Positions 15,231 through 50,136 of a stretch of DNA of 64,000 nucleotides are shown here, piece after piece (position 1 is the stretch's first letter; each line of letters begins with the position of its first letter). Under the pieces are notes generated by a model. The model worked only from the letters and a program-made list of their open reading frames with translations. It was not told the DNA's origin and searched no databases. The DNA lies in NCBI GenBank assembly GCA_902472225.1, contig CABRNB010000001.1:29315-93314 (forward strand), read 5' to 3'. A program made the translations under genes and the position numbers. The DNA is from an uncultured Anaeromassilibacillus sp. GTDB taxonomy: Bacteria; Bacillota; Clostridia; Oscillospirales; Acutalibacteraceae.

Positions 15231-15233
15231 ACC

Positions 15234-17363: not shown

Positions 17364-17368
17364 CGGCG

Positions 17369-25515: not shown

Positions 25516-25717
25516 GTTTTCTCAAAGTACCCCGCCTGGCCGTAATGTGTGAGAATAACCTGCCTACGGAAAGCAGGTGGGTGCCCGCCCAACGGTTTCA
25601 CGCTCCCTTCTTCCGGCAAAGCCGGGAGGTCTGCAATCTGCCGCCGGAGCTAAGCTCCCGATTCAAAAGTGTAGGGTTATCATACGCAAGTCCGCGAACC
25701 AGGCAGGAAAAGTCTTT

Positions 25718-26196: not shown

Positions 26197-27456
26197 ACAA
26201 CAAAGGAAGAGATACAAAGAAAGCAGACAAAATATCCGCTGAAAGCAAAAGAAGGAATTTTGCATTAACAAAGTTTTTTCAGCAAGGGAAGCGGATAAGA
26301 AGAATGTGGAAGGAATGTCTGCGAATTGTACCACTCACTTTTGTGCAGATTTAGACAGAAAGGGGTGCAGTCCAATGGACACCAAACCGCAGCAGTATCC
26401 GGCAGACGTTGTTCTGTTGGACGGCGTCTGCTGAGATAAAGAAAACGTGTTCTCTACAAGAGCGGTAAAGCTGATGAATACCAGAGGAATGAGAGCAAAG
26501 GCATAGAGGTATGTATTGCGGATCATTCGGAAAAGGGAAAGGCAGCGAAACCGTAAATATCGTGTAGACCAAAAGCTTTGAGCTGAATTGATGGTTAGCT
26601 CGGATTTTATTGAACCATTTGTACAGAAAGGAACGGGAAGTAAATCCAGTGCAGTTTCTGAGCATGGTCTCAATGAATCGAAGGTTTGCAGAATAGCGTG
26701 ATCTATTTTCAAAAACCCGATTGTAGCTTTTGGAAAAGCTTGAAACATTTTCGTTTCACGAAACAAAGAGTGCGGTAATTCTGGAAAATAGCTAAGCACG
26801 CAGTTGAAATTCTGAAAACTTTTTCTTAGGTGAAGCCCAATGTACAGCATTTGACCCTTCTGAAAAGAAGGAAACGGATATTTCCCTTTCGCGTAGACTT
26901 TTAGAAGTTACAGCAACATTCTTTGGAGATTAAGAATGACTGGAAACAAAATGAATCCCATGCAGTGATAAAGTGGAAGCTCCGGAAAAGGAGTGGATTC
27001 CCCTCAGCGGTGATTTTTAAGTGTTACGGCGACGTTCCGTTTATGGAATGACCGGAAACAAATAAAATTCCATGCAGTGATTCTATAGAAGCTTCGAAGG
27101 AGAAGCGTTGTTCCAAGCGGTGAATTTTAGTAGTTACGGCAACGGTTTTCATCAGAAGACAGACCGGAAACAAACGATTTCCAAGCAGTGAACCTATAGA
27201 GCTTCAAAGAAGAAGCGTTGTTCCCAAGCGGTGAATTTTAGCAGCTCCGGCGACGGTTTGCGGATGCAGGCTGACCGGAAGCACAAGACTCCCAGCAGTG
27301 AACAAAGAAGCTTCGAAGGAGAAGCAGTTTATCACCAGCAGAGATTTATGTAGTTACAGCAACATTTCTCCGGTTTGAGAGAATGACTGTAAACCCTTAA
27401 TCCCATGCACAGATAAAAGTATTACGAGAGCCCCGGCCGGTACCGCCGGGGCTCTC
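26197..27456 (+). ncRNA. candidate long noncoding RNA (about 1.26 kb) containing about 4.5 degenerate tandem repeats of about 110 nt; no credible ORF on either strand
   Basis: Strong promoter upstream and a GC-rich 12-bp hairpin at the 3' end. GC about 42 % versus about 62 % in flanks. Only junk ORFs in the six-frame track. Conserved submotifs in every repeat unit. Confidence 0.45.
26895..27420 (+). repeat. tandem direct repeats, about 110-bp period, roughly 4.5 copies, about 65-75 % identical
   Basis: Recurring blocks TTTTAG-(T/C)AGTTACGGCAACG, GACCGGAAACAAA, CATGCAGTGA, GAAGCTTCGAAGGAGAAGCGTTGTTCC, AAGCGGTGA. GTTAC(G/A)GC recurs at 26907, 27023, 27134, 27245 and 27354. Confidence 0.8.
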
Positions 27457-27460
27457 TTGA
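27426..27460. terminator. GC-rich hairpin closing the noncoding island (possibly bidirectional)
   Basis: GAGAGCCCCGGC-cggtacc-GCCGGGGCTCTC. U-rich on the minus-strand side, TTGATCT on the plus side. A second hairpin GTCCGGA...TCCGGAC follows immediately. Confidence 0.55.
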
Positions 27461-27680
27461 TCTGTCCGGACCACGGATCCGGACGGTGGAAACGCATTTG
27501 CCTTTTCTCCTGCTCTTTGGCGGAGCCCCGTTTTGCAGTTGGTTTCCTGTGAAAAGGAAATGTGAATTAATTGTAAACTTTTGGCTGTTGAGTGAGAAAA
27601 TCACTTTTTTCCTGTTCTGTTTTTGCTATACTGAAAACCACAAGCTCCCTTTTTGGGGCAGCAGAAAGGCGGAATTTTAG

Positions 27681-28604
27681 ATGGATCATAAAATTTGGGA
27701 TGTTATCATCGTCGGAGGCGGTCCCGGCGGCTACACGGCGGCTTTGTACTGCGGCCGTGCGGCGCTTTCCGTTCTTGTCCTTGAGAAAATGGCGCCTGGC
27801 GGTCAGATGGGGACGACGGATCAGATTGACAATTATCCCGGCTTCCCGGAGGGAATTAACGGATTTGATCTTGCCATGCAGATGCAGCAGAGCGCTGAAA
27901 GATTTGGTGCGCAGACGCGCCTTGAGGACGTCGTCCGTCTCTCTCTGGAGGGAGAGATCAAAACGGTCGTCACTTCCTCCGGCGAATACAAGGCGCGCAC
28001 CGTGGTTCTGGCTACCGGGGCGGCTCCCCGTGAGCTGGGGCTGCCTCGGGAACGCGAGCTGCGCGGCCGCGGCGTTTCTTATTGCGCGACGTGCGACGGC
28101 ATGTTTTATCGCGGCAAAGAGGTCGTGGTGGTAGGCGGAGGCAACACAGCGGCCGCCGATGCGCTGTATCTCTCAAAGCTCTGCGGAAAGGTGACGATTG
28201 TGCACCGCCGCGATACGCTGCGTGCTTCGAAAGCATATCTCAAGCCTCTTCAGGAGTGCGGCAACGTGGAAATCCTTTGGGACAGCCTGCCGGACGAGAT
28301 TCTCGGAGAGAACGCTGTTTCCGGCTTGCGGGTGAAAAATAAAAAGACAGGCGAGACGCAGGATGTGCCTTGCGCCGGTATTTTCGTTGCAATCGGAAAC
28401 GAGCCGAATACGGCTCTCTTCGCGGACAGTGTTGCTCTCGACGGCGGCTATGTCGCTGCGGATGAAACGACCCGTACCAATCTTCCGGGCGTTTTTGCGG
28501 TGGGCGATGTTCGCCGCAAGCCGCTGCGCCAGGTGGTTACCGCCGTTGCGGACGGCGCGATGGCTTCCCATTTCATTGAGGAATACCTCTCCGAGGTTCA
28601 TTGA
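27681..28604 (+). CDS. trxB: thioredoxin-disulfide reductase
   Basis: GGGPGG FAD motif, redox-active CATC, GGGNTA NADPH motif. 307 aa. Confidence 0.9.
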   Translation: MDHKIWDVIIVGGGPGGYTAALYCGRAALSVLVLEKMAPGGQMGTTDQIDNYPGFPEGINGFDLAMQMQQSAERFGAQTRLEDVVRLSLEGEIKTVVTSSGEYKARTVVLATGAAPRELGLPRERELRGRGVSYCATCDGMFYRGKEVVVVGGGNTAAADALYLSKLCGKVTIVHRRDTLRASKAYLKPLQECGNVEILWDSLPDEILGENAVSGLRVKNKKTGETQDVPCAGIFVAIGNEPNTALFADSVALDGGYVAADETTRTNLPGVFAVGDVRRKPLRQVVTAVADGAMASHFIEEYLSEVH

Positions 28605-28621
28605 CACATCTCTGGATACAG

Positions 28622-28684
28622 AAAGAGCGCCTCTGCTCCCCGACCGGTTTGCCGGTTGAGGAGGCAGGGGCGCTCTTTTGTGTT
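28622..28684. terminator. bidirectional terminator between trxB and the convergent oxidoreductase gene
   Basis: AAAGAGCGCCTCTGCTCC...GGAGGCAGGGGCGCTCTTT TGTGTT. Confidence 0.6.
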
Positions 28685-28710
28685 CCGAAAGGAAAGATGA
28701 AAGGGGAGAC

Positions 28711-29862
28711 TCAGATCTCCGGGATCTCAATCTCAATCTCGCGGCCCAGTTCAGCGGATTTCTGAATACCGGAGATAATGGCCTGATTGTAGAGAATCTG
28801 GCTGGTCGGGACGGGAGCCTCGCCGCCGTTCTTGACTGCGTCGAGGAAGGAACGGATCTTCTTGTAGAAGAGGCCGCCGAAGGAGTCTCCCTCCGGGCAG
28901 AGCGGGATGGTCGTCTGGGTCTGCTCGCCCGCGACGTCGCGGTACAGCGTCATGGGGCCGCCGACGGTGCCGTTCCAGCACTCCGTGGACGGGATGCGCA
29001 GAGCGCCCTTCGTGCCCATGATGATCGTGTCACCGGGAGTGTCAACATGCATCGCCCATGCGATACGGAAATCGAGAATAATATCACCCTCCAGGCGAAC
29101 AAACGCGGCGGCAAAATCGTCCACATCGAAGCGGGCGGCGTCAGCCGGATTGTTGTAAAGAGGATTGGTGCCGAGGAAGTTGGAGGTGTAGCCCGTCACA
29201 GTCAGCGGCTTCGGATAGCCGATGGCGTTGAGCACCATGTCCAGGGAGTAGCAGCCGATATCGCCGAGCGCGCCGATGCCGGCCGTCTTTTTCTCAATGA
29301 AGGTGCTGTTCGGGATGCCGCGGCGGCGTCCGCCGCCGGTCTGGATGTAATAGATCTTGCCCAGCTCGCCGGACTCGACGATCTTCTTGATCATTTTCAT
29401 GTTGTCGTCCATGCGGGGCTGGAAGCCGATCGAGAGAAGCTTGCCGCTCTCCTTTTCCGCCTTGCAGATGGCCGCGGCCTCTTCCATCGTGACGCACATC
29501 GGCTTCTCCAGAAGCACATTGACGCCCTTCTGGAGCGCGTAAATGGTGCACTCCGCATGCGTGACGTTGTAGGTGCAGACACTCACGGCGTCGAGGTTCT
29601 CCGCCTCGGCGTCGAGCATGGACTTGTGGTCGGGATACAGACGGACGCCTTCAACGCCGTAGCGCTTGAAGAACTTCTCCGCCTTGCCGGGGATCAGGTC
29701 GGCGGCGGCGACGATCTCGACGTCGGGCATCTGCTTGTAGCTCTCAATGTGAGCTTCAGCAATCCAGCCGGTGCCGATGATGCCGATCTTCAGCTTGCGG
29801 GAGACGTCAATCTCTTCTTCTTCGGTGGGAGGGGTAAACTGGTTGAGAACAGTATCAGACAT
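28711..29862 (-). CDS. Gfo/Idh/MocA-family NAD(P)-dependent oxidoreductase
   Basis: Rossmann fold IGIIGTGWIAEAHIESY, EKPM motif. 383 aa. Confidence 0.8.
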   Translation of the reverse strand: MSDTVLNQFTPPTEEEEIDVSRKLKIGIIGTGWIAEAHIESYKQMPDVEIVAAADLIPGKAEKFFKRYGVEGVRLYPDHKSMLDAEAENLDAVSVCTYNVTHAECTIYALQKGVNVLLEKPMCVTMEEAAAICKAEKESGKLLSIGFQPRMDDNMKMIKKIVESGELGKIYYIQTGGGRRRGIPNSTFIEKKTAGIGALGDIGCYSLDMVLNAIGYPKPLTVTGYTSNFLGTNPLYNNPADAARFDVDDFAAAFVRLEGDIILDFRIAWAMHVDTPGDTIIMGTKGALRIPSTECWNGTVGGPMTLYRDVAGEQTQTTIPLCPEGDSFGGLFYKKIRSFLDAVKNGGEAPVPTSQILYNQAIISGIQKSAELGREIEIEIPEI

Positions 29863-29923
29863 GGTACGATTCCTCTCTTTTCAAATTATGATGGGGAAAG
29901 TTATGGCGGGGAAAGACAGCTGC

Positions 29924-30745
29924 TTACAGCAGAGTCTTCAGATATGCGATGCTGATTTCAGCGCATTCCATGGGAGTCTTGTCCATGCTCGGGGCGTCCT
30001 GCTCGACGACAACCCATTCCGCGCCTGCATCCTCGGCGGCAGCCAGGATGGCGGGGAAGTCCTGCAGGCCCTTGCCCAGCGGACGGAACTCAAAGGTTTT
30101 CTTCTCTTCCTTCTTCTCAGACTCAATGCCGATCAGCTCATACATCTGCTCCGGCTTTTCTCCGGAGAGGAAGAAATCCTTAAGGTGAACGACGGGAGCA
30201 CGGCCCGTATACTTGCGCACATAGGCAGCCGGATTCTCGCCGCCGACGTTGACCCAGCAGGTGTCGAGCTCGGTCTGCAGCAGCTCGGCAGGCACGGTGT
30301 CATAGAGAACGTCGAGGGCGTATTTGCCGTCGATCTTCGCAAATTCAAAATCGTGATTGTGATAGAGCAGCGTCATGCCGAGCTTCTTCGCCGTCTCGCC
30401 GAGCAGGCGCGCCCCTTCGATGGTCTTCTGGAACCCGTCTGTGCCGGGACGGTACTCCTCGGTCAGATAGGGGATTGCGACAAAGCGGCAGCCGATCGCG
30501 GCGTATTCGCCGAGGACTTTCTCCGGATCCGCCATCATGTCGACGAACGGAACATGAGCGGAGATCGGGACGAGGCTGTACTTTTCACAAAGCGCCTTAA
30601 CCTCAGCAGGGGCTTTGCCGTAGAGACCGGCGAACTCCACGCCGTCATAGCCGAGCTCCTTCACCTTTTTCAGCGTGCCCTCGAAGTCCTTCTCAAGATC
30701 GTCGCGGACCGAGTACAGCTGGAGCGCGATAGGAAACTTTTTCAT
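29924..30745 (-). CDS. sugar phosphate isomerase/epimerase (xylose-isomerase-like TIM barrel)
   Basis: 273 aa, AP-endonuclease-2/XylA-like TIM-barrel pattern (GYDGVEF...HAKD). Confidence 0.7.
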   Translation of the reverse strand: MKKFPIALQLYSVRDDLEKDFEGTLKKVKELGYDGVEFAGLYGKAPAEVKALCEKYSLVPISAHVPFVDMMADPEKVLGEYAAIGCRFVAIPYLTEEYRPGTDGFQKTIEGARLLGETAKKLGMTLLYHNHDFEFAKIDGKYALDVLYDTVPAELLQTELDTCWVNVGGENPAAYVRKYTGRAPVVHLKDFFLSGEKPEQMYELIGIESEKKEEKKTFEFRPLGKGLQDFPAILAAAEDAGAEWVVVEQDAPSMDKTPMECAEISIAYLKTLL

Positions 30746-30893
30746 GGTGCTGACAACTCCTTTTCCAAAAATCTGTCAATTCTAATTTCTTTTGCGGGGG
30801 AACTGGTCCCTGCGGAACGCAGGCGGGAACGCCATTCGAAGGGGGTTCCCTTCCGCAGAGCAATTCGCCTGTCAGACGGTGAACATGCGGCTT

Positions 30894-31943
30894 TTAGATG
30901 TGAAGCGAGATGGAGCAGCCTTTTTCAGCAGACTCAAAGACAGCGTCGATCACCCGCATCACGCGCAGAGCCTGTTCGGGGGTGACGGCCAGCGGTGCCT
31001 TGCCCTCGTCGGCGTCGCGGAAATTGCGGTAATAGTCGCGGGCGTCGCTTTCCAGCTCGGGCAGGGGCAGCTCCTCGAGGCTTTCCTTCGGGCGGGGGGC
31101 CATTGTGCGGGTTGGTCCGGCCACGGTGTAGACGATACCGGCCTCCCAGCGCATTTCCTCCGTCTTCGCGCGCACGACGCGGCCGGTGCAGGAGAAGTCG
31201 TCAACCTGAGCGGTGCCGCTGTCGCCGGATACATGCCAGCGGGGCAGATTGATAAAGGTATAGGTGTCTACCTCCACGAGAGCGGACAGACCGTTCTCAA
31301 AGCGCATCAGGAGCTTGAAGTTGTCGTCAACGCCGGGGAACTTGACGGAAAGCAGGTGCGCGTAAACCTCCGTAACAGGGCTGTCAACGAGATACATGAG
31401 CTGATCAATCAGGTGCACGCCCCAGTCGAGCAGCATGCCGCCGCCCGCTTCCTTTACGCAGCGCCAGTCGCCGGGGATGCCCTTGCTGCCCTGAACGCGG
31501 GACTCGATGTAGAACGGCTTGCCGATGGTGCCGTTCTCGATCAGCGTCTTGACAATGAGGAAATCCTTGTCCCAGCGGCGGTTCTGATGCACGGAGAACT
31601 GACGTCCCGTCTCCTTCGAGACAGCGATGACCTCCTCAAGCTCAGCGGCGTTCATCATGACCGGTTTTTCGCAGATGACGTTTTTGCCCGCGCGCATCGC
31701 CTGAATCGAGAGAGGCTTGTGAAAGTTGTTCGGAACGGCCAGGAGAACGGTGCGGATTTCCGGGTCGGCGAGCAGCTCGTCGAGCGTCTGGTAGCCGTGG
31801 ATGCCGTCCTGTTCCGCGGCGGCGATCCGCTCCGGGTTGATGTCATAAATGCCCGCGAGCCGGAACTCCTCCGGCAGAGACAGAAGCTGCTTGGCATGGT
31901 AGCCGCCCATACCGCCGTAGCCGATGATGGCAATGGTATACAT
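30894..31943 (-). CDS. Gfo/Idh/MocA-family NAD(P)-dependent oxidoreductase
   Basis: IAIIGYGGMGGYHAKQL, EKPV motif. 349 aa. RBS AAAGGAGGAA. Confidence 0.8.
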   Translation of the reverse strand: MYTIAIIGYGGMGGYHAKQLLSLPEEFRLAGIYDINPERIAAAEQDGIHGYQTLDELLADPEIRTVLLAVPNNFHKPLSIQAMRAGKNVICEKPVMMNAAELEEVIAVSKETGRQFSVHQNRRWDKDFLIVKTLIENGTIGKPFYIESRVQGSKGIPGDWRCVKEAGGGMLLDWGVHLIDQLMYLVDSPVTEVYAHLLSVKFPGVDDNFKLLMRFENGLSALVEVDTYTFINLPRWHVSGDSGTAQVDDFSCTGRVVRAKTEEMRWEAGIVYTVAGPTRTMAPRPKESLEELPLPELESDARDYYRNFRDADEGKAPLAVTPEQALRVMRVIDAVFESAEKGCSISLHI

Positions 31944-31978
31944 GGTGGAAGTTTCCTCCTTTATGATTGACCGGCAGC

Positions 31979-32947
31979 TCAGGCCCAGTACATGCCGCCC
32001 TGACGCTCCTCAAAGATAATGGTGCGCTTGAGCACCTCAATCGCCTTTTCAAGGCCCTCACGCGTCGTCATGAGGCCGTCTTCATGCTCGATGGAGATGA
32101 TGCCGTCGTAGCCGACCTTGCGCAGCTCGCTGAAAATTGCGCGCCAGGTATCCTCGCCGTGGCCGTAGCCGATGGTGCGGAAAACCCACGGACGCTCGGT
32201 GATGCGGTCAAAGGGCGTTGTGTCGAGCACGCCGTTGACGGCGCAGTTGTAAGGATCGATGGCCGTGTCCTTCGCGTGGAAGTGGTAAATGGCGCCCTTG
32301 AGCGCACGGATGGCGGCGACGGGATCAATTCCCTGCCAGAACAGGTGGGAGGGATCAAAGTTCGCGCCGATCACCGGGCCGACGGCCTCGCGCAGGCGCA
32401 GCAGGGTGCCGGGGTTATAAACGCAGAAGCCGGGATGCATCTCGAACGCGATCTGATGCACATTGTGCTCCTCGGCGAACTTGGCTTCCTTCTTCCAGTA
32501 GGGGATGAGCTTTTCGTTCCACTGCCATTCCTTGATCTTCTGGAAGTCGTCCGGCCAGGTTGCGACGACCCAGTTCGGATACTGGGAATTCTCGCAGTCG
32601 CCCGGGCAGCCGGAGAAGCCGACAACCGTCTTGACGCCAAGCTTTTCGGCCAGGCAGATGGCGGCCTCGAACTGCTCATGATAGGCGTTCGCGACTTCCT
32701 TGTTCGGGTGCACCGGGTTGCCGTGGCAGGACAGCGCGGCGACGCCAATCCCATACTTGTCGACGGTCTCCTGGAACTGCTCGATGAGCTCGGGATGCTC
32801 CATAAATTTTATGGCGTCCGCGTGGGCAGTGCCGGGGGTGCCGCCGCAGCCGATCTCGACCTCCTGAACGCCGAGGCTCTTGAGATACTTGAGGGTCTCA
32901 TCCAGGGAAAGATCGCCCAGAAGAACCGTCATTACACCTAATTTCAT
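31979..32947 (-). CDS. sugar phosphate isomerase/epimerase (xylose-isomerase-like TIM barrel)
   Basis: About 322 aa, HAKD...IEHED motifs. Start at MKLG with RBS GGAAAGGAG; the listed ORF begins 7 codons upstream, inside the RBS. Confidence 0.7.
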   Translation of the reverse strand: MKLGVMTVLLGDLSLDETLKYLKSLGVQEVEIGCGGTPGTAHADAIKFMEHPELIEQFQETVDKYGIGVAALSCHGNPVHPNKEVANAYHEQFEAAICLAEKLGVKTVVGFSGCPGDCENSQYPNWVVATWPDDFQKIKEWQWNEKLIPYWKKEAKFAEEHNVHQIAFEMHPGFCVYNPGTLLRLREAVGPVIGANFDPSHLFWQGIDPVAAIRALKGAIYHFHAKDTAIDPYNCAVNGVLDTTPFDRITERPWVFRTIGYGHGEDTWRAIFSELRKVGYDGIISIEHEDGLMTTREGLEKAIEVLKRTIIFEERQGGMYWA

Positions 32948-33132
32948 GACAACATTGCTCCTTTCCAATACACATCAGAATCCACAGTTTTTCTCCGTGG
33001 AACAGTTGACTTACCATATACCTGCATTATAATAAAGAGGAGCTCGTTTGTCGTGCCAACGCGGGCCCATTTTGTGACAAAAATTGCTATGACCTCCGGC
33101 ACGGAATCCAGATAAGCGGAAGGGGAAAAAGG

Positions 33133-34044
33133 ATGGACGGCTACTACGAGCATTCTCGGGATGTGGAAAAATATCCCTCCTGCTGGCATTCGGTGGATAA
33201 CACCTGCTTTCCGCATTTTCACAGCTGCGTGGAGATCACGTATGTGACGGAGGGGGAGATCGATTTTGTTCTTAACGGTCACGGAGGAACGGCTGGGGCG
33301 CGTCAGGTGATTGCCGCGCCGAGCTATACGGTGCATTATTTCAGCACGCCGGAAAGCTCACGGTCGATTGTTCTCACCGTGCCGCTTGATTATGTTCCCT
33401 CCTTCCGCAAGCTGATTGCGCGCAGAACGTTCCGCAATCTTATCTGGACCGATCCCGATCCGGAAAGCGAGCTGCTGCATGGTATGGAAAAGCTGACGGA
33501 GCTTTGCACGGTGCACAGCGACGCGCCCCCTGAGCTGCTGACCAAGGGGTACCTTTATACAGTCCTCGGTATTCTGGCGGATCGGCTGGGGCTGACGGAC
33601 AGCCAGGAGGGGACGGACGCCTTTCTCGCCCGCGATATCCTGCAATATCTCGATCAAAATTACCGCTCCGATGTGACGCTGGAAAAGCTTGCCGCCAGAT
33701 TCGGCTACAGCAAGAGCCGATTTTCGCACCTGTTTCACGCCTATTTCGGCTGCGGTATTCCGGAATATGTCAATACGCTGCGCTGCCGCAGCGCTGCGCT
33801 TCTGCTCACGCAGGAGTCCGCTTCCATGACAAGCGCCGCCATGAATTCGGGGTTTGAGAGCATGCGCACCTTTTACCGCTGCTTCAAAAAGTCCTTTGGA
33901 ATTTCTCCGAGCGAATATCTGCGGGAGCGCCGCGGCCAGGAGCCGGACGATCTGCTTTATAATCCGTTTTATCTCTCCGGAGGCGTCCTGCTGCATCGCG
34001 AGGGCGGCGATCCGCAGGAAAGCGGGGAGGAACAGACAGAATAA
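33133..34044 (+). CDS. AraC-family transcriptional regulator, divergent from the oxidoreductase/isomerase cluster
   Basis: Cupin N-domain and C-terminal AraC HTH (LAARFGYSKSRFSHLFHAYFGCGIPEY). Confidence 0.8.
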   Translation: MDGYYEHSRDVEKYPSCWHSVDNTCFPHFHSCVEITYVTEGEIDFVLNGHGGTAGARQVIAAPSYTVHYFSTPESSRSIVLTVPLDYVPSFRKLIARRTFRNLIWTDPDPESELLHGMEKLTELCTVHSDAPPELLTKGYLYTVLGILADRLGLTDSQEGTDAFLARDILQYLDQNYRSDVTLEKLAARFGYSKSRFSHLFHAYFGCGIPEYVNTLRCRSAALLLTQESASMTSAAMNSGFESMRTFYRCFKKSFGISPSEYLRERRGQEPDDLLYNPFYLSGGVLLHREGGDPQESGEEQTE

Positions 34045-35907: not shown

Positions 35908-36001
35908 GATACACTGGATATTGTTGTGAGACCGTTTCCGTTTTTCTCGAAAATGTAAAGGAACACCCGGGAGCCTCCCGGTGAAAGAAAGGCGAATCAA
36001 C

Positions 36002-37276
36002 ATGCAGTTTTCCGTTTGGGGCGTCAGCTATCAGGAGACGCCGCTGTGTCTGCGGGACAAAGCGTCCTTCAGCGACACGCAGAAGCTTGAGGCGCTGGAA
36101 GCGCTCGGGGCTGCGGGAGTAACGCAGGCTGCGATTCTCTCCACCTGCAACCGCAGCGAGCTTTATTATATCAACCCGCGGGGAGATGTACAGGCCGACG
36201 AGGCGGTGCGCCGCATTTTTCTGGAGAAGGAGCCGCGGCTGGCGGATACCCTGTTCCACCGGCAGGGCCGCGAGGCGGTCGCTTATCTTTTTGAGGTGGC
36301 GGCGGGGCTTGAAAGCCTTGTTCTCGGCGAGGATCAGATCCTCGGTCAGGTGCAGGACGCGCTCGATTTCGCCCGGGGAGCCGGGTCGGCGGGCAAGGAG
36401 CTCACACGTGTTTTCCTTGACGCCGTGACGGCGGCCAAGCAGATGAAGACGGCGCTGCGCATCAGCGAGAATCCTCTGTCCCTTTGCTCGATTGGCGTGC
36501 ACCGGCTTGCGTCGTGCGGGGCGGTGAGCGGGAAGACGGCTCTGGTGATCGGCAGCGGGAAAATGGCCGTGCTTGCCCTGCGGTACCTGACCGGCTGCGG
36601 TGCGGCGCGTCTCCTCAACTGCAACCGGAGTTTGGAGCATGCGCTTGCGCTGCGGGAGGAATTTCCCGGTCTGGAGGTTCTGCCTTTCTCCGAACGGTAC
36701 GATGCGGCGCGGCAGTGCGACGTGATCGTCTCGGCGACGGCCTCTCCGCATCTCGTGCTGCGGGCGGAGCAGTTCCCGGAGCGGGAGACGCCGCTGTTTC
36801 TGCTCGATCTTGCCGTACCGCGGGACATCGATCCCGATCTTGCGTCTCGTGCCAATCTTACGCTCTTTGACGTGGACTCGCTCCGGCAGACGGCAGAGGA
36901 AAGCATGCGCCGCCGCCGGGAGCTCGAGGAGACGGGACGCGCGATGCTGCGCGGCGGCGTTGGGGAGACGATGGATTGGCTCGCGTCAAGCCGGGTCGAT
37001 TCCACGGTGCAAAGCCTGCAGCAGCTCTGCCGCGAGGCGGAGGAGGATACCTGCGCGCTGCTGGAGCGCAGGCTGACGCTCAATGAGCATGAAAAGCGCG
37101 TTCTGCGCAAGTTTGTTCATGCGGGGATGCGCCGTCTCGTGCGCGCGCCCATTCTCACGCTCAAGGGACTGAGGGACGAAGGAGAGCAGGAGCGATACAT
37201 GCAGGCCGTTGAACGCCTGTTTCAGATGAAGGGGGAGAACGGACATGAAAATCAGACTGGGAACGAGAGGCTCTAA
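36002..37276 (+). CDS. hemA: glutamyl-tRNA reductase
   Basis: LSTCNRSELY active-site motif. About 424 aa from ATG 36002. Confidence 0.85.
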   Translation: MQFSVWGVSYQETPLCLRDKASFSDTQKLEALEALGAAGVTQAAILSTCNRSELYYINPRGDVQADEAVRRIFLEKEPRLADTLFHRQGREAVAYLFEVAAGLESLVLGEDQILGQVQDALDFARGAGSAGKELTRVFLDAVTAAKQMKTALRISENPLSLCSIGVHRLASCGAVSGKTALVIGSGKMAVLALRYLTGCGAARLLNCNRSLEHALALREEFPGLEVLPFSERYDAARQCDVIVSATASPHLVLRAEQFPERETPLFLLDLAVPRDIDPDLASRANLTLFDVDSLRQTAEESMRRRRELEETGRAMLRGGVGETMDWLASSRVDSTVQSLQQLCREAEEDTCALLERRLTLNEHEKRVLRKFVHAGMRRLVRAPILTLKGLRDEGEQERYMQAVERLFQMKGENGHENQTGNERL

Positions 37277-38147
37277 GCTGGCGCTCACACAGACGGAGAG
37301 CGTGGCGCAGCGGCTGCGGGACCGGAATCCGGGCCTTGCGTGCGAGCTGACGGTCATTCATACCACGGGCGATAAGGTGCAGGATAAGGCGCTCGATCAG
37401 ATTGGTGGCAAGGGGGTCTTTGTGCGGGAAATCGAGCAGGAACTGCTCGGAGGCGGGATCGATCTTGCCGTCCACAGCATGAAGGATATGCCGTCTGAGC
37501 CGGCTCCCGGTCTGTGCTTCTGCCGCACGCTTCCGCGTGAGGATCCGCGGGATGCGCTGATTCTGCGCGGCGCTTCTTCTCTTTGGGAGCTTCCGCAGGG
37601 GGCTGTGATTGCCACGGGGAGTAAGCGGCGTGCGTATCAGCTTCTGCAGCTGCGGCCCGACCTTCACATCACCGGCATTCGGGGCAATGTCGACACGCGC
37701 CTGCGCAAGCTCGACGAGGGCGCGGCGGATGGCCTTGTGATGGCGACTGCCGGGCTCAAACGCCTTGGATTAGAGCATCGCATCACACGGTTTTTCGATC
37801 CGGAAACCGAGCTGGTGCCCGCCTGCGCGCAGGGCGCGCTGGCTGTCGAGTACCGTGAGGGAGATGGCGTGATCGGTCCCCTTCTTGACGCCCTGTGCGA
37901 TTCCGAGGCGCATCTGCGCACTGTATGCGAGCGTTCCTTCCTCGCTGCGGTCGGCGGAGGCTGCCATACCCCGGCAGGGGCGTACGCGCGTCTTGACGCA
38001 GGGGAGATTGTACTGACGGCCTTCCTTGCCTCGGAGGACGGAAGCGCGTGCGGGCGGCTGACGCTGCGCGGCGCGCAGGACAAGGCGGAAGCGCTTGCAC
38101 GGCAGGCGGCTTTGGAGCTGCGCGGCCGGATTGGGGAAGGAGAGTGA
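37245..38147 (+). CDS. hemC: hydroxymethylbilane synthase (porphobilinogen deaminase)
   Basis: MKIRLGTRGSKLALTQT... canonical HemC N-terminus. Confidence 0.9.
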   Translation: MKIRLGTRGSKLALTQTESVAQRLRDRNPGLACELTVIHTTGDKVQDKALDQIGGKGVFVREIEQELLGGGIDLAVHSMKDMPSEPAPGLCFCRTLPREDPRDALILRGASSLWELPQGAVIATGSKRRAYQLLQLRPDLHITGIRGNVDTRLRKLDEGAADGLVMATAGLKRLGLEHRITRFFDPETELVPACAQGALAVEYREGDGVIGPLLDALCDSEAHLRTVCERSFLAAVGGGCHTPAGAYARLDAGEIVLTAFLASEDGSACGRLTLRGAQDKAEALARQAALELRGRIGEGE

Positions 38148-38152
38148 ACAGC

Positions 38153-39631
38153 ATGCCGGGAACCGTTTATCTTGTCGGGGCAGGACCGGGAGATCCGGGC
38201 CTCATGACGCAGAAAGGACTTGACTGCCTGCGCCGGGCCGACTGCGTTGTGTATGACCATCTCGCGAACGACTCGCTGCTGCTGGAGACGAAGCCGGACT
38301 GTGAAAAAATTTACGTCGGTAAGCAGGCGGGAAACCATACCATGCCCCAGGAGGAAATCAACCGCCTTCTCGCACAAAAGGCCCAAAGCTGCGAAACGGT
38401 GGTGCGGCTCAAGGGCGGCGATGTGTATGTGTTTGGGCGCGGCGGCGAGGAGGGCGCGTGGCTGCGCCGTGAGGGCGTTCCCTTCGTCGTTGTGCCGGGG
38501 GTGACTTCGGCGATCGCCGGCCTTGCCTATGCCGGTATTCCGATTACCCACCGCGGCGTCGCGCGCGGCTTCCGTGTGATGACGGCTCACGACAAGGGAG
38601 GCGGGCTGACCAATCTCGATTTTGACTCCATGGCGCACACGGACGATACGCTTGTTTTTCTGATGGGACTGTCGCTGCTCGGAGAGATCACTTCCCGGTT
38701 GCTGGCTGCGGGAAAGCCGTCCGGAACGCCTGCCGCCGTCATTTCGGAGGCGACGCTCCCGACCCAGCGCGTGGTGACCGCTCCGCTTTCGGAGCTGGAA
38801 GCGCGCGTGCAGGAAAATCCGCTTCCGTCGCCCGCTCTCATTGTTGTCGGCGAGGTAGTGCGCGAGCGGGAGACGCTCCGCTTCTTCGGGGAGGGGCCGC
38901 TCGGCGGCGTGCGCGTCCTGCTGCCCTGTGTCGGGGAGACGCCCTCGCGCCTCGGCGGGATGCTGCGCGGGAGGGGAGCGTTCGTCACGGAGCTGCCGGT
39001 GCGCCGGATCCGCGAGCTGCCGGGCGTGCTCCGGCGGGACGACGTGGAGTGGGCGGAGACGCTTGTTCTGACGAGCCGCCATGCGTGTGCATTTTTCTTC
39101 GGCCAGCTCTTCGCCCTCGGTCTTGACGTTCGTGCGCTTTCGGGCGTGCGGATCGCGGCCGTCGGCCCCGGAACGGCGGAGAAGCTTTCCCGTTTCGGCC
39201 TGCGCGCCGACCTCGTGCCGGAGCCCCACACCGGGGAGGGAATGGAAGCCCTTCTGCGGCGCGAACTGACGCCGGGAACCCACGTGCTGTATCCGAAGGT
39301 CAAGGATCTCGCCCCGGAGCTTGCCGCTGCGCTGGCGTCGTTCTGTGAGCTGCGTGCACCGGAGCTCTATGAAAATCTGCCGGTCGAGGACGCCGTTCTG
39401 TCTGCGGACGCCTCGTTTGACGCCGCCGTTTTTACCTCCGCGTCGGCAGTGCGCGGCGCGATCGGCGCGCTGCGGGAGAGCGGAGTTTCCGTGAGCTCGT
39501 GCGGCCGCCTGATTTCCATCGGGCCGAAAACGGCACGGGAGCTCAGACAAAACGGTTTTGACACGCTGGAGGCGGCGCATGCCGATCTCGGCGGGATACT
39601 GGAAAAAATGGAGGAGCTGTTTCATGAATAA
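38153..39631 (+). CDS. cobA-hemD: bifunctional uroporphyrinogen-III C-methyltransferase / uroporphyrinogen-III synthase
   Basis: N-terminal VYLVGAGPGDPGLMT (SAM-dependent tetrapyrrole methylase), C-terminal HemD-like half. RBS GGGGAAGGAGAG. The listed ORF start at 38048 overlaps hemC. Confidence 0.85.
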   Translation: MPGTVYLVGAGPGDPGLMTQKGLDCLRRADCVVYDHLANDSLLLETKPDCEKIYVGKQAGNHTMPQEEINRLLAQKAQSCETVVRLKGGDVYVFGRGGEEGAWLRREGVPFVVVPGVTSAIAGLAYAGIPITHRGVARGFRVMTAHDKGGGLTNLDFDSMAHTDDTLVFLMGLSLLGEITSRLLAAGKPSGTPAAVISEATLPTQRVVTAPLSELEARVQENPLPSPALIVVGEVVRERETLRFFGEGPLGGVRVLLPCVGETPSRLGGMLRGRGAFVTELPVRRIRELPGVLRRDDVEWAETLVLTSRHACAFFFGQLFALGLDVRALSGVRIAAVGPGTAEKLSRFGLRADLVPEPHTGEGMEALLRRELTPGTHVLYPKVKDLAPELAAALASFCELRAPELYENLPVEDAVLSADASFDAAVFTSASAVRGAIGALRESGVSVSSCGRLISIGPKTARELRQNGFDTLEAAHADLGGILEKMEELFHE

Positions 39632-40241
39632 CCGGGAAAGAATGCACACCGGCCAGCTGTACGATACGCAGGACAGCGCCATTGTGGAGGAGCAGATCAA
39701 ATGTCTTGAGGTGCTCTATGATTTCAACGCGACGCGCCCGTCGCAGGGTGAGCTGCGCCAGTCGCTGATGAAGAAGCTGTTTGCCGAGGTGGGCGAGGGC
39801 TGCTGCATCGAGCCGCCGCTGCATGCGAACTGGGGCAAGTACACACACCTCGGAGACTTCGTTTATGCCAACTTCAACCTCACGCTCGTCGACGACACGC
39901 ACGTATATATCGGAAATCACGTCATGATCGGCCCGAATGTGACGATTGATACCGGCACGCATCCCGTTTGCCCGGAGCTGCGCTGGCACGCGGTGCAGTA
40001 CAATCTGCCGGTCCGCATCGGGGACAATGTGTGGATTGGGGCCGGAGCGATTCTCCTGCCGGGTGTGACGATAGGGGAGAACAGCGTGATCGGAGCGGGC
40101 AGCGTTGTCACACACGATATCCCTGCGAATGTTGTCGCCGTCGGCACGCCGTGCCGCGTTTTGCGCGAGATTACCGACCGGGATCGGGAGACCTATCACA
40201 AGGGCTGGAAAATAGATATGCCCATGAAGGAAAGGGATTGA
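39624..40241 (+). CDS. hexapeptide-repeat (LbH) sugar O-acetyltransferase, maltose/galactoside acetyltransferase-like, embedded in the hem cluster
   Basis: MNNRERMHTGQLYD... Maa N-terminal motif, left-handed beta-helix hexapeptide repeats. RBS GGAGGAG. Confidence 0.75.
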   Translation: MNNRERMHTGQLYDTQDSAIVEEQIKCLEVLYDFNATRPSQGELRQSLMKKLFAEVGEGCCIEPPLHANWGKYTHLGDFVYANFNLTLVDDTHVYIGNHVMIGPNVTIDTGTHPVCPELRWHAVQYNLPVRIGDNVWIGAGAILLPGVTIGENSVIGAGSVVTHDIPANVVAVGTPCRVLREITDRDRETYHKGWKIDMPMKERD

Positions 40242-40245
40242 TTGC

Positions 40246-41220
40246 ATGTTTTATCGTGGAAGAAGGCTGCGGACCACTCCTGTGATCCGCTCTATGATGC
40301 GCGAGACGGAGCTGTCCGCCCGCGATCTGATTCTGCCGATTTTTGTTGTGGAGGGCGAGGGCGTCTGCCGCGAAATTCCGTCGCTCAAAGGGGTCTGCCA
40401 TTATTCCGTCGATATGCTCGACGGTCTTGTGGATGAGATGCGGGAATGCGGCGTGCTCTCCTGCATTCTCTTCGGCATTCCGGATCACAAGGACGCCTGC
40501 GGCAGCGCGGCGAGCGATGAGAACGGCGTTGTCCAGCGGGCTATGCGCCGTCTGCGCGAGCTTTGCCCGGAGATGTACATCATCGGCGACGTGTGCATGT
40601 GCGAATATACCGATCACGGCCATTGCGGCATCCTCGATGAGCACGGCTACGTGAAGAATGATGAGACGCTCCTGCACCTGAACAAAATTGCTGTGAGCTA
40701 CGCCCGCGCCGGGGCTGACATGGTTGCGCCGAGCGATATGATGGACGGTCACGTGGCCTCGCTGCGCGCTGCCCTCGATGCGGAGGGCTTCGTCAATGTG
40801 GCCATCATGGGCTACAGCGCGAAGTTTGCTTCGAGCTTCTACGGCCCGTTCCGCGACGCGGCAGGTTCCGCTCCGTCCTTCGGTGACAGAAAGTCGTATC
40901 AGATGGATTTCGCCAATGGCCAGGAGGCGCTGCGTGAAATTGCCGCTGATCTCGACGAGGGTGCGGATGTGATCATGGTCAAGCCCGCTCTCGCGTATCT
41001 CGATGTGATCCGTGACGCGAGCCGGGAGTTCAACGCCCCTCTTGCCGCCTACAATGTGAGCGGCGAATACGCGATGCTTCGATCTGCCGTCGATAACGGG
41101 ATCCTTGCCGAGTCTGCGATTTATGAGTCGCTCCTCGCCATCAAGCGCGCCGGAGCGAAGCTGATCATTACATATTTCGCCCTTGAAATTGCGAAAAAGC
41201 TGAAGGAGGGAACGGTATGA
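40246..41220 (+). CDS. hemB: porphobilinogen synthase (delta-aminolevulinate dehydratase)
   Basis: Active-site region with Cys-rich zinc site (DVCMCEYTDHGHCG), 324 aa. Confidence 0.9.
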   Translation: MFYRGRRLRTTPVIRSMMRETELSARDLILPIFVVEGEGVCREIPSLKGVCHYSVDMLDGLVDEMRECGVLSCILFGIPDHKDACGSAASDENGVVQRAMRRLRELCPEMYIIGDVCMCEYTDHGHCGILDEHGYVKNDETLLHLNKIAVSYARAGADMVAPSDMMDGHVASLRAALDAEGFVNVAIMGYSAKFASSFYGPFRDAAGSAPSFGDRKSYQMDFANGQEALREIAADLDEGADVIMVKPALAYLDVIRDASREFNAPLAAYNVSGEYAMLRSAVDNGILAESAIYESLLAIKRAGAKLIITYFALEIAKKLKEGTV

Positions 41221-42512: not shown

Positions 42513-42513
42513 G

Positions 42514-48827: not shown

Positions 48828-49017
48828 GGGAAAGCCTCCTTTTTGAACGGGGCGCAAACGTCCCGTGTTTCCATTTTCTGTCTCTATCAGCGTACCATGA
48901 AACGCAGGATTTGTAAAATATTTTGTTCGGATAAAATTTATAGGGAAAATACAATGAATGACATTGCCGCCGGCGCCGCGAAGCGCGGAATTTTGCCCGG
49001 CGGAGGAAGGAGATCAC

Positions 49018-49992: not shown

Positions 49993-50136
49993 GGACGCTG
50001 TTTTTCACAAGCAGCGTCCTTTTCTTCTTTTCCGTTTCCGCCTACAATGAAAAGGAAGGGGAGCGGCAAAACGTTCCCGAGCGAAAGCGAACAAGCGGAT
50101 ACGATCCGCCTTCCCGGGCGGAGAAGGGAGAGGAGT

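Follow-up and report, generated by a model that had tools for sequence, protein, structure and literature searches.

A four-gene oxidoreductase and TIM-barrel operon with a divergent AraC-type regulator in a gut Oscillospirales genome, predicted to remove sugars from O-glycosides non-hydrolytically

In a 64 kb stretch of DNA (the window) from the genome of an anaerobic, Gram-positive gut bacterium of the Oscillospirales, four enzyme genes were found on the minus strand between positions 28711 and 32947, encoding in coordinate order a Gfo/Idh/MocA oxidoreductase, a TIM barrel, a second Gfo/Idh/MocA oxidoreductase and a second TIM barrel. The genes and the predicted regulatory features are as follows:

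28622..28687, no strand assigned, GC-rich hairpin that separates trxB from the convergent GfoA gene and has T-runs on either strand, identified by inspection of the sequence
28711-29862, minus strand, GfoA gene (383 aa)
29924-30745, minus strand, TIM1 gene (273 aa)
30894-31943, minus strand, GfoB gene (349 aa)
31979-32947, minus strand, TIM2 gene (322 aa from an ATG, with an AGGAG ribosome-binding site)
33006..33033, plus strand, predicted promoter of the araC-like gene (TTGACT, 16 nt spacer, TATAAT; 11/12 in the consensus scan)
33026..33054, minus strand, predicted sigma-70-type operon promoter (-35 ACGACA, 17 nt spacer, -10 TATAAT; 10/12 in the consensus scan)
33053..33079, minus strand, predicted AraC operator, a direct repeat TGTCAC-N15-TGGCAC in the shared intergenic region
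33133-34044, plus strand, AraC gene (303 aa), divergent from the enzyme genes

The open reading frames lie exactly where the preliminary description had placed them, their Pfam domains agree with it, and independent gene calls on eight public contigs return the same five genes. A longer TIM2 form from a TTG start (329 aa) was rejected, as gene callers do not use it. The gaps within the four-gene operon are 61, 148 and 35 nt. Both oxidoreductases carry the N- and C-terminal GFO_IDH_MocA domains (E 1e-28), and both barrels belong to the xylose-isomerase-like AP_endonuc_2 family (E 9e-19 and 1e-34). Because GfoA and GfoB share 24% identity and TIM1 and TIM2 have no similarity detectable by BLAST, the genes represent four distinct families and not duplicates. 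Signal peptides are absent from all four enzymes, and they have no linked transporter, glycosidase or kinase gene. Neither a transporter nor an iol gene occurs within about 10 kb on each side or in the annotated parts of the window; the earlier statement that a transporter and IolB/C/D/J are missing holds within the window.

The best solved relative of GfoA is DgpA (7xr9, E 1.6e-43; residues 23-371 aligned to 4-361; about 40% identity), followed by DgpA1 (9m3d, E 6e-39). Its EKP motif and D201-x3-Y205 are invariant among 51 family members, with a tyrosine where DgpA, AL3 and P2B11-Oxi1 have the histidine of the D/N-x3-H motif. DgpA-type enzymes oxidize the C3 position of both C- and O-glycosides, with 3-oxo-glucose accepting the hydride (bioRxiv 10.1101/816074; PMC11239390). 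On sequence grounds, GfoA is predicted to be an NAD-dependent glycoside C3-dehydrogenase of the DgpA class.

TIM1 has AtOGE as its best solved relative (8bvk, E 2e-34; 32-40% identity) and AL1/BT1 as the next (8tcd, 8tcs and 8tct, E 3e-17 to 4e-14). AtOGE (PMC10628242) and AL1/BT1 (preprint 10.1101/2024.03.25.586180) are experimentally proven 3-keto-beta-glucoside eliminases. The AtOGE residues H132, H134, D163, H189 and E233 correspond to H129, H131, D161, H187 and E248 of TIM1, which together with H64 and W164 are invariant in 81 homologues, so that the metal ligands and the catalytic histidine are retained throughout. With the AF2 model of TIM1 (pLDDT 91) as the Foldseek query, the top nine PDB matches were all members of the lyase group or uncharacterised Parabacteroides relatives. 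TIM1 is predicted to be a metal-dependent 3-keto-beta-glycoside 1,2-lyase, that is, an O-glycoside beta-eliminase. In a natural protein of 616 aa, a TIM1-like domain (53% identity) is fused to one of the DgpA class.

The preliminary description had offered glycoside 3-oxidation, with DgpB-C/Car-type barrels, as one of two possible logics. The oxidation half is borne out by the full-length match of GfoA to DgpA and by the relationship of GfoB to DfgE/DgpA2, while the barrels proved to match other families, namely the O-glycoside beta-eliminases/lyases (AtOGE, AL1, BT1) and the glucal hydratase AtHYD. A DgpABC/DfgABE/CarABC-type C-glycoside deglycosylation, in which the oxidoreductases would form 3-keto-C-glycosides and a barrel would cleave the C-C bond, could draw on the crystal structure of DgpA2 with isoorientin and on the fold and Mn site that AtOGE has in common with the C-deglycosidase alpha subunit (PMC10628242). 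However, neither TIM1 nor TIM2 resembles DgpC, DfgA or CarB in sequence (E>0.06), and these three proteins are outside the top 50 fold matches. Moreover, no open reading frame for a small DgpB/CarC-like beta-subunit is present, the gaps being just 61, 148 and 35 nt, and AtOGE and AL1/BT1 were shown to be unable to cleave 3-keto-C-glycosides. We consider this reading improbable.

A family profile of TIM2 retrieved 2zds (E 2e-24) and AtHYD (8ro4, E 8e-13; 22-26% identity to TIM2) from the PDB, and the Foldseek matches of its AF2 model (pLDDT 82) were 2zds (TM 0.79-0.81) and 8ro4 (TM 0.77-0.78), beyond which the scores clearly fell. The motifs E169-x-H171-P-G (FEMHPG), D198-P-S-H201 and H224-x-K-D227 as well as E287 are invariant in a 29-member alignment; the three motifs align across TIM2, 2zds and 8ro4, and E287 aligns with 2zds only. 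AtHYD is a glucal hydratase encoded beside AtOGE in A. tumefaciens (PMC10628242). TIM2 is accordingly placed with SCO6571 and AtHYD, and is predicted to be a 2-hydroxy-3-keto-glucal hydratase that may act as an eliminase as well. Since a DgpA-class neighbour alone is commoner at TIM2 loci (20/37) than a GfoB-class neighbour (13/37), TIM2 could itself be the eliminase type of enzyme, or be bifunctional like AL2/BT2.

YcjQRS of E. coli convert a glucoside through a 3-keto-glucoside and a 3-keto-guloside to a guloside. A similar route here, in which the barrels would be epimerases and glycosides would be isomerized via 3-keto intermediates without cleavage, finds a precedent in the 3-keto-D-glucoside 4-epimerase YcjR, which has the same fold (ranks 41-43), and in a ycj-reminiscent Blautia locus where a TIM2 homologue is accompanied by genes for a Gfo protein, a Zn-dependent alcohol dehydrogenase and a sugar ABC transporter. 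Yet YcjR is a remote match beside AtOGE/AL1 (for TIM1) and AtHYD (for TIM2) and is absent from the sequence matches at E<0.01, the operon has no YcjQ-like Zn-dependent alcohol dehydrogenase gene, and the eliminase active site is complete in TIM1. The chance that the operon works in this way appears small.

GfoB matches 3e18 (E 9e-94) and 9m37, DgpA2 with isoorientin (E 3e-67), and aligns with DfgE of Eubacterium cellulosolvens in two segments (38% and 29% identity, E 6e-43); its identity to DfgE/DgpA2 is about 30-40%, and it carries the EKP and D-x3-H motifs. It is predicted to be a 3-keto-glucose reductase and/or a second glycoside C3-dehydrogenase. The nearest ligand-bound relative, 9m37, carries a C-glycoside, and GfoB may be a second front-end oxidase instead of a reductase.

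Catabolism of anhydro-sugars or free 3-keto-sugars, for example of levoglucosan via LgdA/B1/B2/C or of 1,5-anhydro-hexoses, would involve no intermolecular glycosidic cleavage. PMC10628242 describes a Bacillus smithii levoglucosan operon with two Gfo and two isomerase-like proteins, and weak matches to levoglucosan dehydrogenase and 1,5-anhydro-D-fructose reductase were obtained. With the levoglucosan dehydrogenase model, however, the scores are 82 and 71 bits (cut-off 650), and for each of the four proteins the closest characterised relatives have glycosides or glycoside-derived glucal as substrates; pyrolysis sugars would also be an unlikely staple for an anaerobic gut host. Such a role is therefore rated as unlikely.

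The other logic proposed earlier was inositol-type chemistry. On such a reading, the oxidoreductases would be IolG/IolW/IolX-type inositol dehydrogenases, the barrels IolE/IolI-type inosose dehydratase or isomerase, and the locus a split part of an iol pathway. Formally, some of the proteins have their best or near-best hits to the NCBIfam IolG and IolE models, GfoB is called 'scyllo-inositol 2-dehydrogenase' by one source, and the barrels have the same fold as IolE and IolI. Nevertheless, all the scores fall far short of the equivalog cut-offs, at 147.5 and 93.5 bits for IolG (cut-off 355) and 55.7 and 37.3 bits for IolE (cut-off 290). In phmmer searches, TIM1 matches AtOGE at 2e-34 versus 1.4e-3 for IolE, a difference of 30 orders of magnitude, and the TIM2 profile did not find IolE in the PDB at E<0.01. 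By fold, IolE/IolI rank 13th to 28th, with IolE itself 13th and 21st, and iolB/C/D/J are absent from the window and from related loci. Inositol or cyclitol catabolism is thus extremely unlikely, and this part of the preliminary description is not upheld.

The linkage of these genes recurs across genomes. A GfoA homologue (62-80% identity) directly adjoins the TIM1 homologue in 56 of 80 TIM1-centred loci, the other 24 having no nearby Gfo partner. A Gfo/Idh/MocA gene lies within 3.5 kb of the TIM2 homologue in 30 of 37 informative TIM2-centred loci, ten of the 37 contain all three partner classes, and GfoB homologues (43-92% identity) adjoin TIM2 homologues in several gene orders. Across Clostridia, the four enzyme classes are found in four or more gene orders, and an AraC homologue often adjoins them. 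The arrangement of oxidoreductases and barrels is beyond chance.

The AraC protein comprises a cupin sensor domain (Cupin_2/EutQ) and two HTH motifs (HTH_18, HTH_AraC). Its homologues, at 33-44% identity (83% in one near relative), are divergent elsewhere too, next to these enzyme classes arranged in other orders. The araC-like promoter and the operon promoter are back to back and overlap, and the proximal half of the operator overlaps the operon -35 element. The operator is the sole match in the 64 kb window, where 0.01 would be expected by chance. Eight distinct promoters, which come from diverged taxa and differ in gene order, keep AGCaaTTTTGTCAC-N15-TgrCAcGAC (common consensus TGTCAC-N15-TGRCAC), and the operon -10 element and its distance from the operator are conserved in them too. 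The protein is predicted to be a dedicated activator of the four-gene operon. At the opposite end, the 28622..28687 hairpin, which a scan missed because its loop is longer than 8 nt, has the arms AAAGAGCGCCTCTGC and GCAGGGGCGCTCTTT around an inner hairpin and is followed by TTTTGTGTT on the plus strand and TTTCTGT on the minus strand; judged from these letters, it is probably a bidirectional terminator at the 3' end of the operon.

Operons built on the same logic, with two oxidoreductases and two isomerase-like proteins, have been characterised in A. tumefaciens, Bacillus smithii (levoglucosan) and fosmid P2B11. The A. tumefaciens glycoside-degradation operon encodes GlycDH, AtOGE, AtHYD and a Gfo reductase (Bitter et al. 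2023, PMC10628242; PDB 8BVK, 8RO4). It resembles the studied operon in its eliminase family (TIM1/AtOGE, E 2e-34, identical active-site residues), its hydratase-type barrel family (TIM2/AtHYD, profile E 8e-13, TM 0.77), its Gfo/Idh/MocA partner and its four steps, which lead from oxidation through elimination and hydration to reduction. Whereas the first oxidant of A. tumefaciens is the FAD-dependent GMC-type GlycDH, here it would be an NAD-dependent DgpA-class Gfo/Idh/MocA enzyme, and the studied operon further differs in lacking signal peptides, in having an AraC regulator and in its Gram-positive gut anaerobe host.

Among the non-Koshland clusters of Nasseri et al. 2024 (Alistipes AL1-5, B. 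thetaiotaomicron BT2156-2160 and the Gram-positive fosmid P2B11; 8TCD, 8TCT, 8TDI), the AL/BT systems share the 3-keto-beta-glucoside 1,2-lyase fold group of AL1/BT1, to which the top Foldseek matches assign TIM1. Unlike the studied operon, they are periplasmic and have a DUF1080 alpha-lyase/hydratase and a DUF6377 regulator, and with the BT_2158 and BT_2159 family models the studied proteins stay far under the cut-offs. P2B11 is likewise Gram-positive, with two oxidoreductases, two 'sugar phosphate isomerases' and no nearby transporter, but it has the order Iso-Oxido-Oxido-Iso and is specific for glucuronides, and GfoB matches its oxidase only distantly (8tdi, E 8e-14).

The DgpA/DfgE/DfgCD systems of Lachnospiraceae (strain PUE, Eubacterium cellulosolvens, Catenibacillus scindens) share the DgpA class of GfoA and the DfgE class of GfoB; their DgpA-type enzymes oxidize O-glycosides, the aglycone then being lost (PMC11239390), and DfgCD is reported to be a two-gene flavonoid O-glucosidase (PMC8398226, PMC11170127). 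In contrast to them, the studied operon has no DgpBC/DfgAB C-deglycosidase, and GfoA has a tyrosine for the histidine of D-x3-H in DgpA. Bacillus smithii LgdA-LgdB1-LgdB2-LgdC is alike in its two Gfo/Idh/MocA and two xylose-isomerase-like proteins and in its four-step chemistry (summarised in PMC10628242), whereas its substrate is an intramolecular glycoside.

We consider it likely that the operon forms a cytoplasmic, redox-neutral cassette that cleaves O-glycosides, possibly also S-glycosides, by oxidation, beta-elimination, hydration and reduction. Points that weigh against this reading are the modest identities to characterised enzymes, the tyrosine that GfoA has in place of the D/N-x3-H histidine, the excess of TIM2 loci with a DgpA-class neighbour alone, the C-glycoside held by the nearest ligand-bound relative of GfoB, the lack of a linked transporter, glycosidase or kinase, and the 24 of 80 TIM1 homologues that have no Gfo partner close by. 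In this scheme, whose catalytic steps we infer, GfoA with bound NAD+ would oxidize the C3 hydroxyl of the glucosyl (or a similar pyranosyl) unit of an O-glycoside or possibly an S-glycoside. TIM1, as a Mn2+/Co2+ enzyme, would bind the 3-keto group through its metal, and a histidine or glutamate base would take H2, so that the aglycone is expelled by beta-elimination to leave 2-hydroxy-3-keto-glucal. TIM2 would add water to the glucal to give 3-keto-glucose, which GfoB and/or the reduced GfoA (ping-pong) would convert to glucose with regeneration of NAD+. The net reaction would be a redox-neutral 'hydrolysis'. The AraC protein would probably sense the glycoside or a pathway product and activate the operon from the direct repeat overlapping the -35 element. 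Aryl or other beta-glucosides are our best guess for the substrate.

The pathway itself is already known, having been described in 2020-2024, and the operon is an uncharacterised, ordinary member of it and not an inositol operon. With its own AraC-type regulator, it most likely serves a gut Clostridium in the non-hydrolytic removal of sugars from glycosides.

ORF calls on the window recovered five genes exactly where the preliminary description had placed them, and Pfam bore out the oxidoreductase/TIM-barrel composition proposed there, assigning two Gfo/Idh/MocA oxidoreductases (GfoA and GfoB), two xylose-isomerase-like TIM barrels (TIM1 and TIM2) and a cupin plus AraC-HTH regulator:

28711-29862 (-), GfoA, 383 aa
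29924-30745 (-), TIM1, 273 aa
30894-31943 (-), GfoB, 349 aa
31979-32947 (-), TIM2, 322 aa
33133-34044 (+), divergent AraC-family gene, 303 aa

Gene calling gave the identical five genes on eight independent public contigs from the source organism, an uncultured gut Oscillospirales member near Anaeromassilibacillus sp. An200 and 'Candidatus Caccousia', and public records go no further than the names 'sugar phosphate isomerase/epimerase', 'xylose isomerase', 'oxidoreductase' or 'scyllo-inositol 2-dehydrogenase'. GfoA and GfoB share only 24% identity, and no BLAST similarity was detectable between TIM1 and TIM2, indicating that the operon encodes four different families rather than two duplicated pairs. 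The operon genes are separated by gaps of 61, 148 and 35 nt; the stability of the folded 148-nt TIM1-GfoB spacer was not unusual (z = -1.2), and an Rfam search of the operon returned no match. Both flanks consist of housekeeping genes, with trxB on one side and an SPFH protein, a small Nitro_FeMo-Co-domain protein and the hem operon on the other. Among the annotated genes of the window, neither a transporter nor an iol gene was found near the operon, as had been described from the sequence. In this high-GC window, + strand ORFs such as those at 28678-29955, 9459-11633 and 14331-16559, which had no Pfam match or no database record, were dismissed as spurious, and the minus-strand genes were read instead.

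Compared with solved structures, GfoA aligned over its full length with DgpA (7xr9, E 1.6e-43), the glycoside C3-oxidoreductase found in the puerarin degrader strain PUE, and with DgpA1 (E 6e-39); after these two, matches were weaker by twenty orders of magnitude. The EKP motif is kept in GfoA and invariant in the family alignment, while the Asp-x3-His of DgpA is replaced by Asp201-x3-Tyr205, whose Tyr is invariant in 51 family members. The best matches of GfoB were an uncharacterised Listeria oxidoreductase (3e18, E 9e-94) and 9m37, 'DgpA2 in complex with isoorientin' (E 3e-67). GfoB was also the only operon protein to match the Mori 2021 set (DgpC, DfgA, CarB and DfgE), its partner being the glycoside oxidoreductase DfgE (38% and 29% identity over two segments, E 6e-43); the sequences of this set came from the supplement as machine-read text with frameshifts and were hence compared by tblastn/BLASTP only. 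By homology, both GfoA and GfoB are candidate glycoside dehydrogenases that would oxidize the C3-OH, and GfoB may serve either as a reductase or as another front-end oxidase that accepts a different set of aglycones.

The best match of TIM1 was AtOGE (8bvk, E 2e-34), an Mn2+-dependent enzyme from Agrobacterium tumefaciens that acts as an O-glycoside beta-eliminase (PMC10628242). The structures 8tcd, 8tcs and 8tct came next (E 3e-17 to 4e-14), and IolE far behind (E 1e-3). Entries 8tcd and 8tct are AL1 and BT1, 3-keto-beta-glucopyranoside 1,2-lyases of an alternative glycan-breakdown pathway (preprint 10.1101/2024.03.25.586180; PDB titles). The metal ligands His132, Asp163, His189 and Glu233 and the catalytic residue His134 of AtOGE (PMC10628242) align with His129, Asp161, His187, Glu248 and His131 of TIM1, respectively, all of which are invariant in 81 homologues (54-77% identity). 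Also invariant in these homologues are His64 and Trp164, the counterparts of substrate-binding residues of AL1/BT1 (preprint 10.1101/2024.03.25.586180). For the AlphaFold model of TIM1 (pLDDT 91), the nine best PDB fold matches were AL1, BT1, AtOGE and uncharacterised Parabacteroides relatives, after which came a gap of two to three orders of magnitude, with IolE ranking 13th. Together, the H-x-H, D-x-x-W, H, E active site and the modelled fold suggest that TIM1 is a metal-dependent 3-keto-glycoside 1,2-lyase.

No operon protein reached the curated cut-off of any NCBIfam equivalog model, which bears on the inositol-type logic considered in the preliminary description. With the IolG model TIGR04380, GfoB and GfoA scored 147.5 and 93.5 bits (cut-off 355); with NF052679, the two Gfo proteins scored 52.6 and 87.9 bits (cut-off 540); and with the IolE model TIGR04379, TIM1 and TIM2 scored 55.7 and 37.3 bits (cut-off 290), all far below the thresholds. 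Moreover, AtOGE for TIM1 and AtHYD, the glucal hydratase of A. tumefaciens, for TIM2 rank above IolE, and no iolB, iolC, iolD or iolJ gene occurs among the genes annotated in the window or the related loci. On the curated cut-offs and the relative ranking, inositol catabolism was thus rejected and is given hardly any credence. The barrels had also been likened to C-glycoside deglycosidases of the DgpB-C/Car type, but this likeness did not hold: TIM1 and TIM2 show no BLAST similarity to the alpha subunits DgpC, DfgA and CarB (E>0.06), and these subunits are absent from the phmmer matches and the top 50 fold matches of both barrels. Nor was an ORF or called gene for the small beta subunit (DgpB/CarC, about 130-160 aa) found in or beside the operon, whose intergenic gaps leave no room for one. 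C-glycoside cleavage was therefore rejected and is judged very unlikely.

TIM2 matched SCO6571 (2zds, E 1e-23) and 8ro4, 'AtHYD 2-hydroxy-3-keto-glucal hydratase' (E 1e-10), and its family profile recovered the same two structures (E 2e-24 and 8e-13, respectively) and no IolE. The TIM2 model (pLDDT 82) gave TM values of 0.79-0.81 with SCO6571 and 0.77-0.78 with AtHYD, then a clear gap, with generic sugar isomerases at 0.57-0.69 and IolE and IolI ranking 21st and 28th. By profile and fold, TIM2 falls in the SCO6571/AtHYD subgroup, at an identity of only 22-26%. It may be a hydratase only, or an eliminase too; the latter role is kept as an alternative because TIM2 homologues often pair with a DgpA-class gene alone. 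A literature search found no source papers for 8RO4/AtHYD, DgpA2, P581a or W974-1. In Blautia marasmi (L089/L090, 2756-8942), a TIM2 homologue (77% identity) is encoded with LacI, a Gfo/Idh/MocA protein, a sugar ABC transporter (binding protein and two permeases) and a Zn-dependent alcohol dehydrogenase, a gene set that recalls the glycoside-epimerisation genes ycjQRS of E. coli, and TIM2 family members may serve more than one 3-keto-sugar pathway. For the operon studied here, epimerisation of the YcjQRS type is nevertheless quite unlikely, as YcjR ranked only 41st among the TIM2 fold matches.

The genes of the cassette lie side by side and are inherited as a set. In 56 of 80 genome loci, the TIM1 homologue is directly adjoined by a GfoA homologue (62-80% identity). 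The 24 unpaired TIM1 homologues lie in housekeeping contexts. The remaining neighbours vary, the only recurrent families at the TIM1 loci being AraC regulators (about 13 loci) and extra Gfo/TIM genes; no recurrent transporter or glycosidase was found near the TIM1-GfoA pairs or the unpaired homologues across the 80 loci. Across 80 metagenomic loci that carry a TIM2 homologue, these four classes are found in at least four gene orders, and simple pairs also occur:

AraC<->TIM2-GfoB-TIM1-GfoA, as in the window
AraC<->(DgpA-like Gfo)-TIM2-GfoB-(OGE-like TIM), common in Lachnospiraceae and Herbinix
TIM1-GfoA-AraC<->GfoB-TIM2, among TIM2-centred loci
GfoA-TIM1-TIM2-GfoB, among TIM2-centred loci
(DgpA-like Gfo)-TIM2, simple pairs among TIM2-centred loci

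A Gfo gene lies within 3.5 kb of the TIM2 homologue in 30 of 37 informative loci; in these 37, a DgpA-class gene was present in 20, a GfoB-class gene in 13, an OGE-class barrel in 17 and all three in 10. Furthermore, the 616-aa protein P0347, encoded outside the window, is a natural fusion of a TIM1-like domain (53% identity to TIM1) and a DgpA-class Gfo/Idh/MocA domain (30-34% identity). The conserved content in shuffled order, together with this fusion, strongly suggests that the proteins function jointly. Dividing them neatly into a GfoA-TIM1 'front half' and a TIM2-GfoB 'back half' was also considered and found weakly supported, since TIM2 homologues pair with DgpA-class genes more often than with GfoB-class genes. 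In another fusion, P0360 (727 aa), the TIM1-like domain is linked to a C-terminal part resembling metallo-beta-lactamases, in which an HxHxDH motif was noted by eye.

By analogy with characterized enzymes, we propose that GfoA would first oxidize the glycosyl C3-OH; the metal of TIM1 would then bind the 3-keto group, H2 would be abstracted and the aglycone expelled to give 2-hydroxy-3-keto-glucal; TIM2 would hydrate the glucal to 3-keto-glucose; and GfoB and/or reduced GfoA would convert the latter to glucose, the net reaction being a redox-neutral 'hydrolysis'. The reductive last step fits the published use of 3-oxo-glucose as a hydride acceptor by DgpA and DfgE, and AL3/BT3 act alike (preprint 10.1101/2024.03.25.586180). 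None of the four N-termini shows a visible signal peptide on direct reading, which points to a cytoplasmic process. The pair-only loci also fit this scheme, because DgpA alone frees aglycones from aryl O-glycosides by spontaneous elimination (PMC11239390) and AL1/BT1 slowly hydrate the glucal (preprint 10.1101/2024.03.25.586180).

The 185-nt TIM2-AraC intergenic region contains two promoter-like sites, overlapping and back to back:

Regulator promoter-like site, TTGACT-16-TATAAT
Operon promoter-like site, ACGACA-17-TATAAT

A strict operator pattern matched only 13 loci and was too narrow, as the motif tolerates variation, so promoters were aligned instead. Across eight distinct promoters, which come from diverged taxa and different gene orders, the shared motif is AGCaaTTTTGTCAC-N15-TgrCAcGAC, with TATAAT about 19 nt further. 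The putative operator is a direct repeat with 21-bp spacing, the proximal half of which overlaps the -35 element, the usual layout for AraC/XylS-type activators. One copy of the repeat is present in the window, at 33053-33079 (-), against 0.01 expected by chance. At the other end, the operon is probably terminated by the following element:

28622-28687, GC-rich hairpin with T-runs on either strand, in the gap between trxB and GfoA, which converge

Several other features of the window were recorded. Just upstream of trxB, 26888-27461 (+) is a non-coding, low-GC stretch (about 0.45) in which a unit of 110-116 nt is repeated in tandem about five times (TRF period 111, 78% matches), followed by a GC-rich hairpin at 27421-27461. 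A candidate hairpin, GUUACGG...CCGGAAAC, recurs in each unit and varies in a compensatory way from copy to copy; the stretch had no Rfam match even at E<=1 and may be an array of structured RNAs or protein-binding repeats. The trxB gene itself (27681-28604 (+), 307 aa) is listed in a 90% cluster in which the representative and the named members are 421-aa Pseudoflavonifractor 'transcriptional regulator / type II restriction enzyme' proteins, which looks like a database inconsistency rather than biology. A full-length 6S RNA (SsrS) gene lies at 25525-25712 (-) (RF00013, 66 bits against a gathering score of 46.4). The tetrapyrrole/siroheme operon at 35981-43122 (+) encodes hemA, hemC, a fused uroporphyrin methylase/HemD, a hexapeptide acetyltransferase, hemB, hemL and a siroheme-synthase-like NAD_binding_7 protein. 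The region 48958-53759 (+), 15 kb from the glycoside cassette, carries an L-rhamnose catabolic operon, likewise without a linked transporter, in which a gene for an AraC-type regulator accompanies those for a rhamnulokinase of the FGGY type, L-rhamnose isomerase (RhaA) and rhamnulose-1-phosphate aldolase, a class II aldolase; rhamnose occurs commonly in flavonoid glycosides. Read by eye, 9558-13545 (-) carries a phosphotransferase-like gene (370 aa) beside a nucleotidyltransferase-like gene (314 aa) and then two tandem AraC-family regulators, and the + strand ORFs over this region (11782-12750 and 12763-13506 in addition to 9459-11633 and 14331-16559) were rejected as spurious. The stretch 13896-18085 (-) encodes a surface system that is uncharacterised: between an FtsX-type ABC permease and an ABC ATPase lies a 709-aa protein that has a signal peptide, repeats and a C-terminal membrane anchor but no domains recognisable by eye.

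The chemistry proposed for the cassette and its design of 'two Gfo plus two isomerase-like proteins' have already been described in A. tumefaciens, and the Alistipes and Bacteroides clusters and the levoglucosan operon of Bacillus smithii have them in common with it. Despite the latter likeness, anhydro-sugar catabolism is a poor candidate, as GfoA and GfoB scored only 81.7 and 71.2 bits with the levoglucosan dehydrogenase model NF052479 (cut-off 650). The Gram-positive fosmid P2B11 shows the same design and likewise lacks a linked transporter; the cassette oxidoreductases are distant from its solved oxidase Oxido1 (8tdi), and none of the matches was identified as a P2B11 isomerase-like protein. 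Different from the FAD enzyme of A. tumefaciens, the front-end oxidase here is predicted to be NAD-dependent and of the DgpA class, and an AtHYD-type barrel takes the place of the DUF1080 protein of the Bacteroidales clusters. No DUF1080 gene is present in the cluster, and the cut-offs of the BT_2158 and BT_2159 glycoside dehydrogenase models, which represent the Bacteroidales BT2156-2160 / AL1-5 cluster, were not reached (NF058561, 68 and 16.8 bits against 750; NF058563, 32 and 41.9 bits against 650). Further differences of this cassette from the described systems are its predicted cytoplasmic location, the AraC regulator with a conserved operator and the Tyr in the catalytic motif of GfoA. 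In Lachnospiraceae, a two-gene flavonoid O-glucosidase, DfgCD, is known (PMC8398226, PMC11170127; AKC35075/AKC35076, EIM58371/EIM58370).

We tentatively raise the possibility, which we consider somewhat doubtful as it stands, that the TIM1-GfoA pair and the AraC-controlled cassette are the main cytoplasmic, broad-specificity 'oxidative glycosidase' of gut Oscillospirales/Lachnospiraceae, using two front-end oxidase classes (DgpA-type with the unusual Tyr, and DfgE-type) on dietary or xenobiotic O-/S-glycosides that ordinary glycosidases handle poorly. Its substrates would include flavonoid glucosides, glucosinolates and drug glycosides, and the TGTCAC-N15-TGRCAC regulon might reach unlinked transporters. 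The operator and the AraC sensor offer a direct handle on the inducer, and therefore on the substrate. Since the biochemistry is established elsewhere, the gain lies in annotation and distribution rather than in a new principle. TIM1 and TIM2 each have at least 8000 close protein clusters, and TIM1 has 632 clusters at 50% identity (E<=1e-30), so that an oxidation-elimination-hydration-reduction label gives very large families a testable function in abundant, poorly studied gut Clostridia. As such a route cleaves glycosides resistant to classical glycosidases, it bears on flavonoid aglycone release, glucosinolate activation and drug-glycoside metabolism; if the proposal is true, thousands of 'sugar phosphate isomerase' and 'oxidoreductase' genes would belong to a route of major importance, so far unrecognised, by which Firmicutes metabolise glycosides and drugs.
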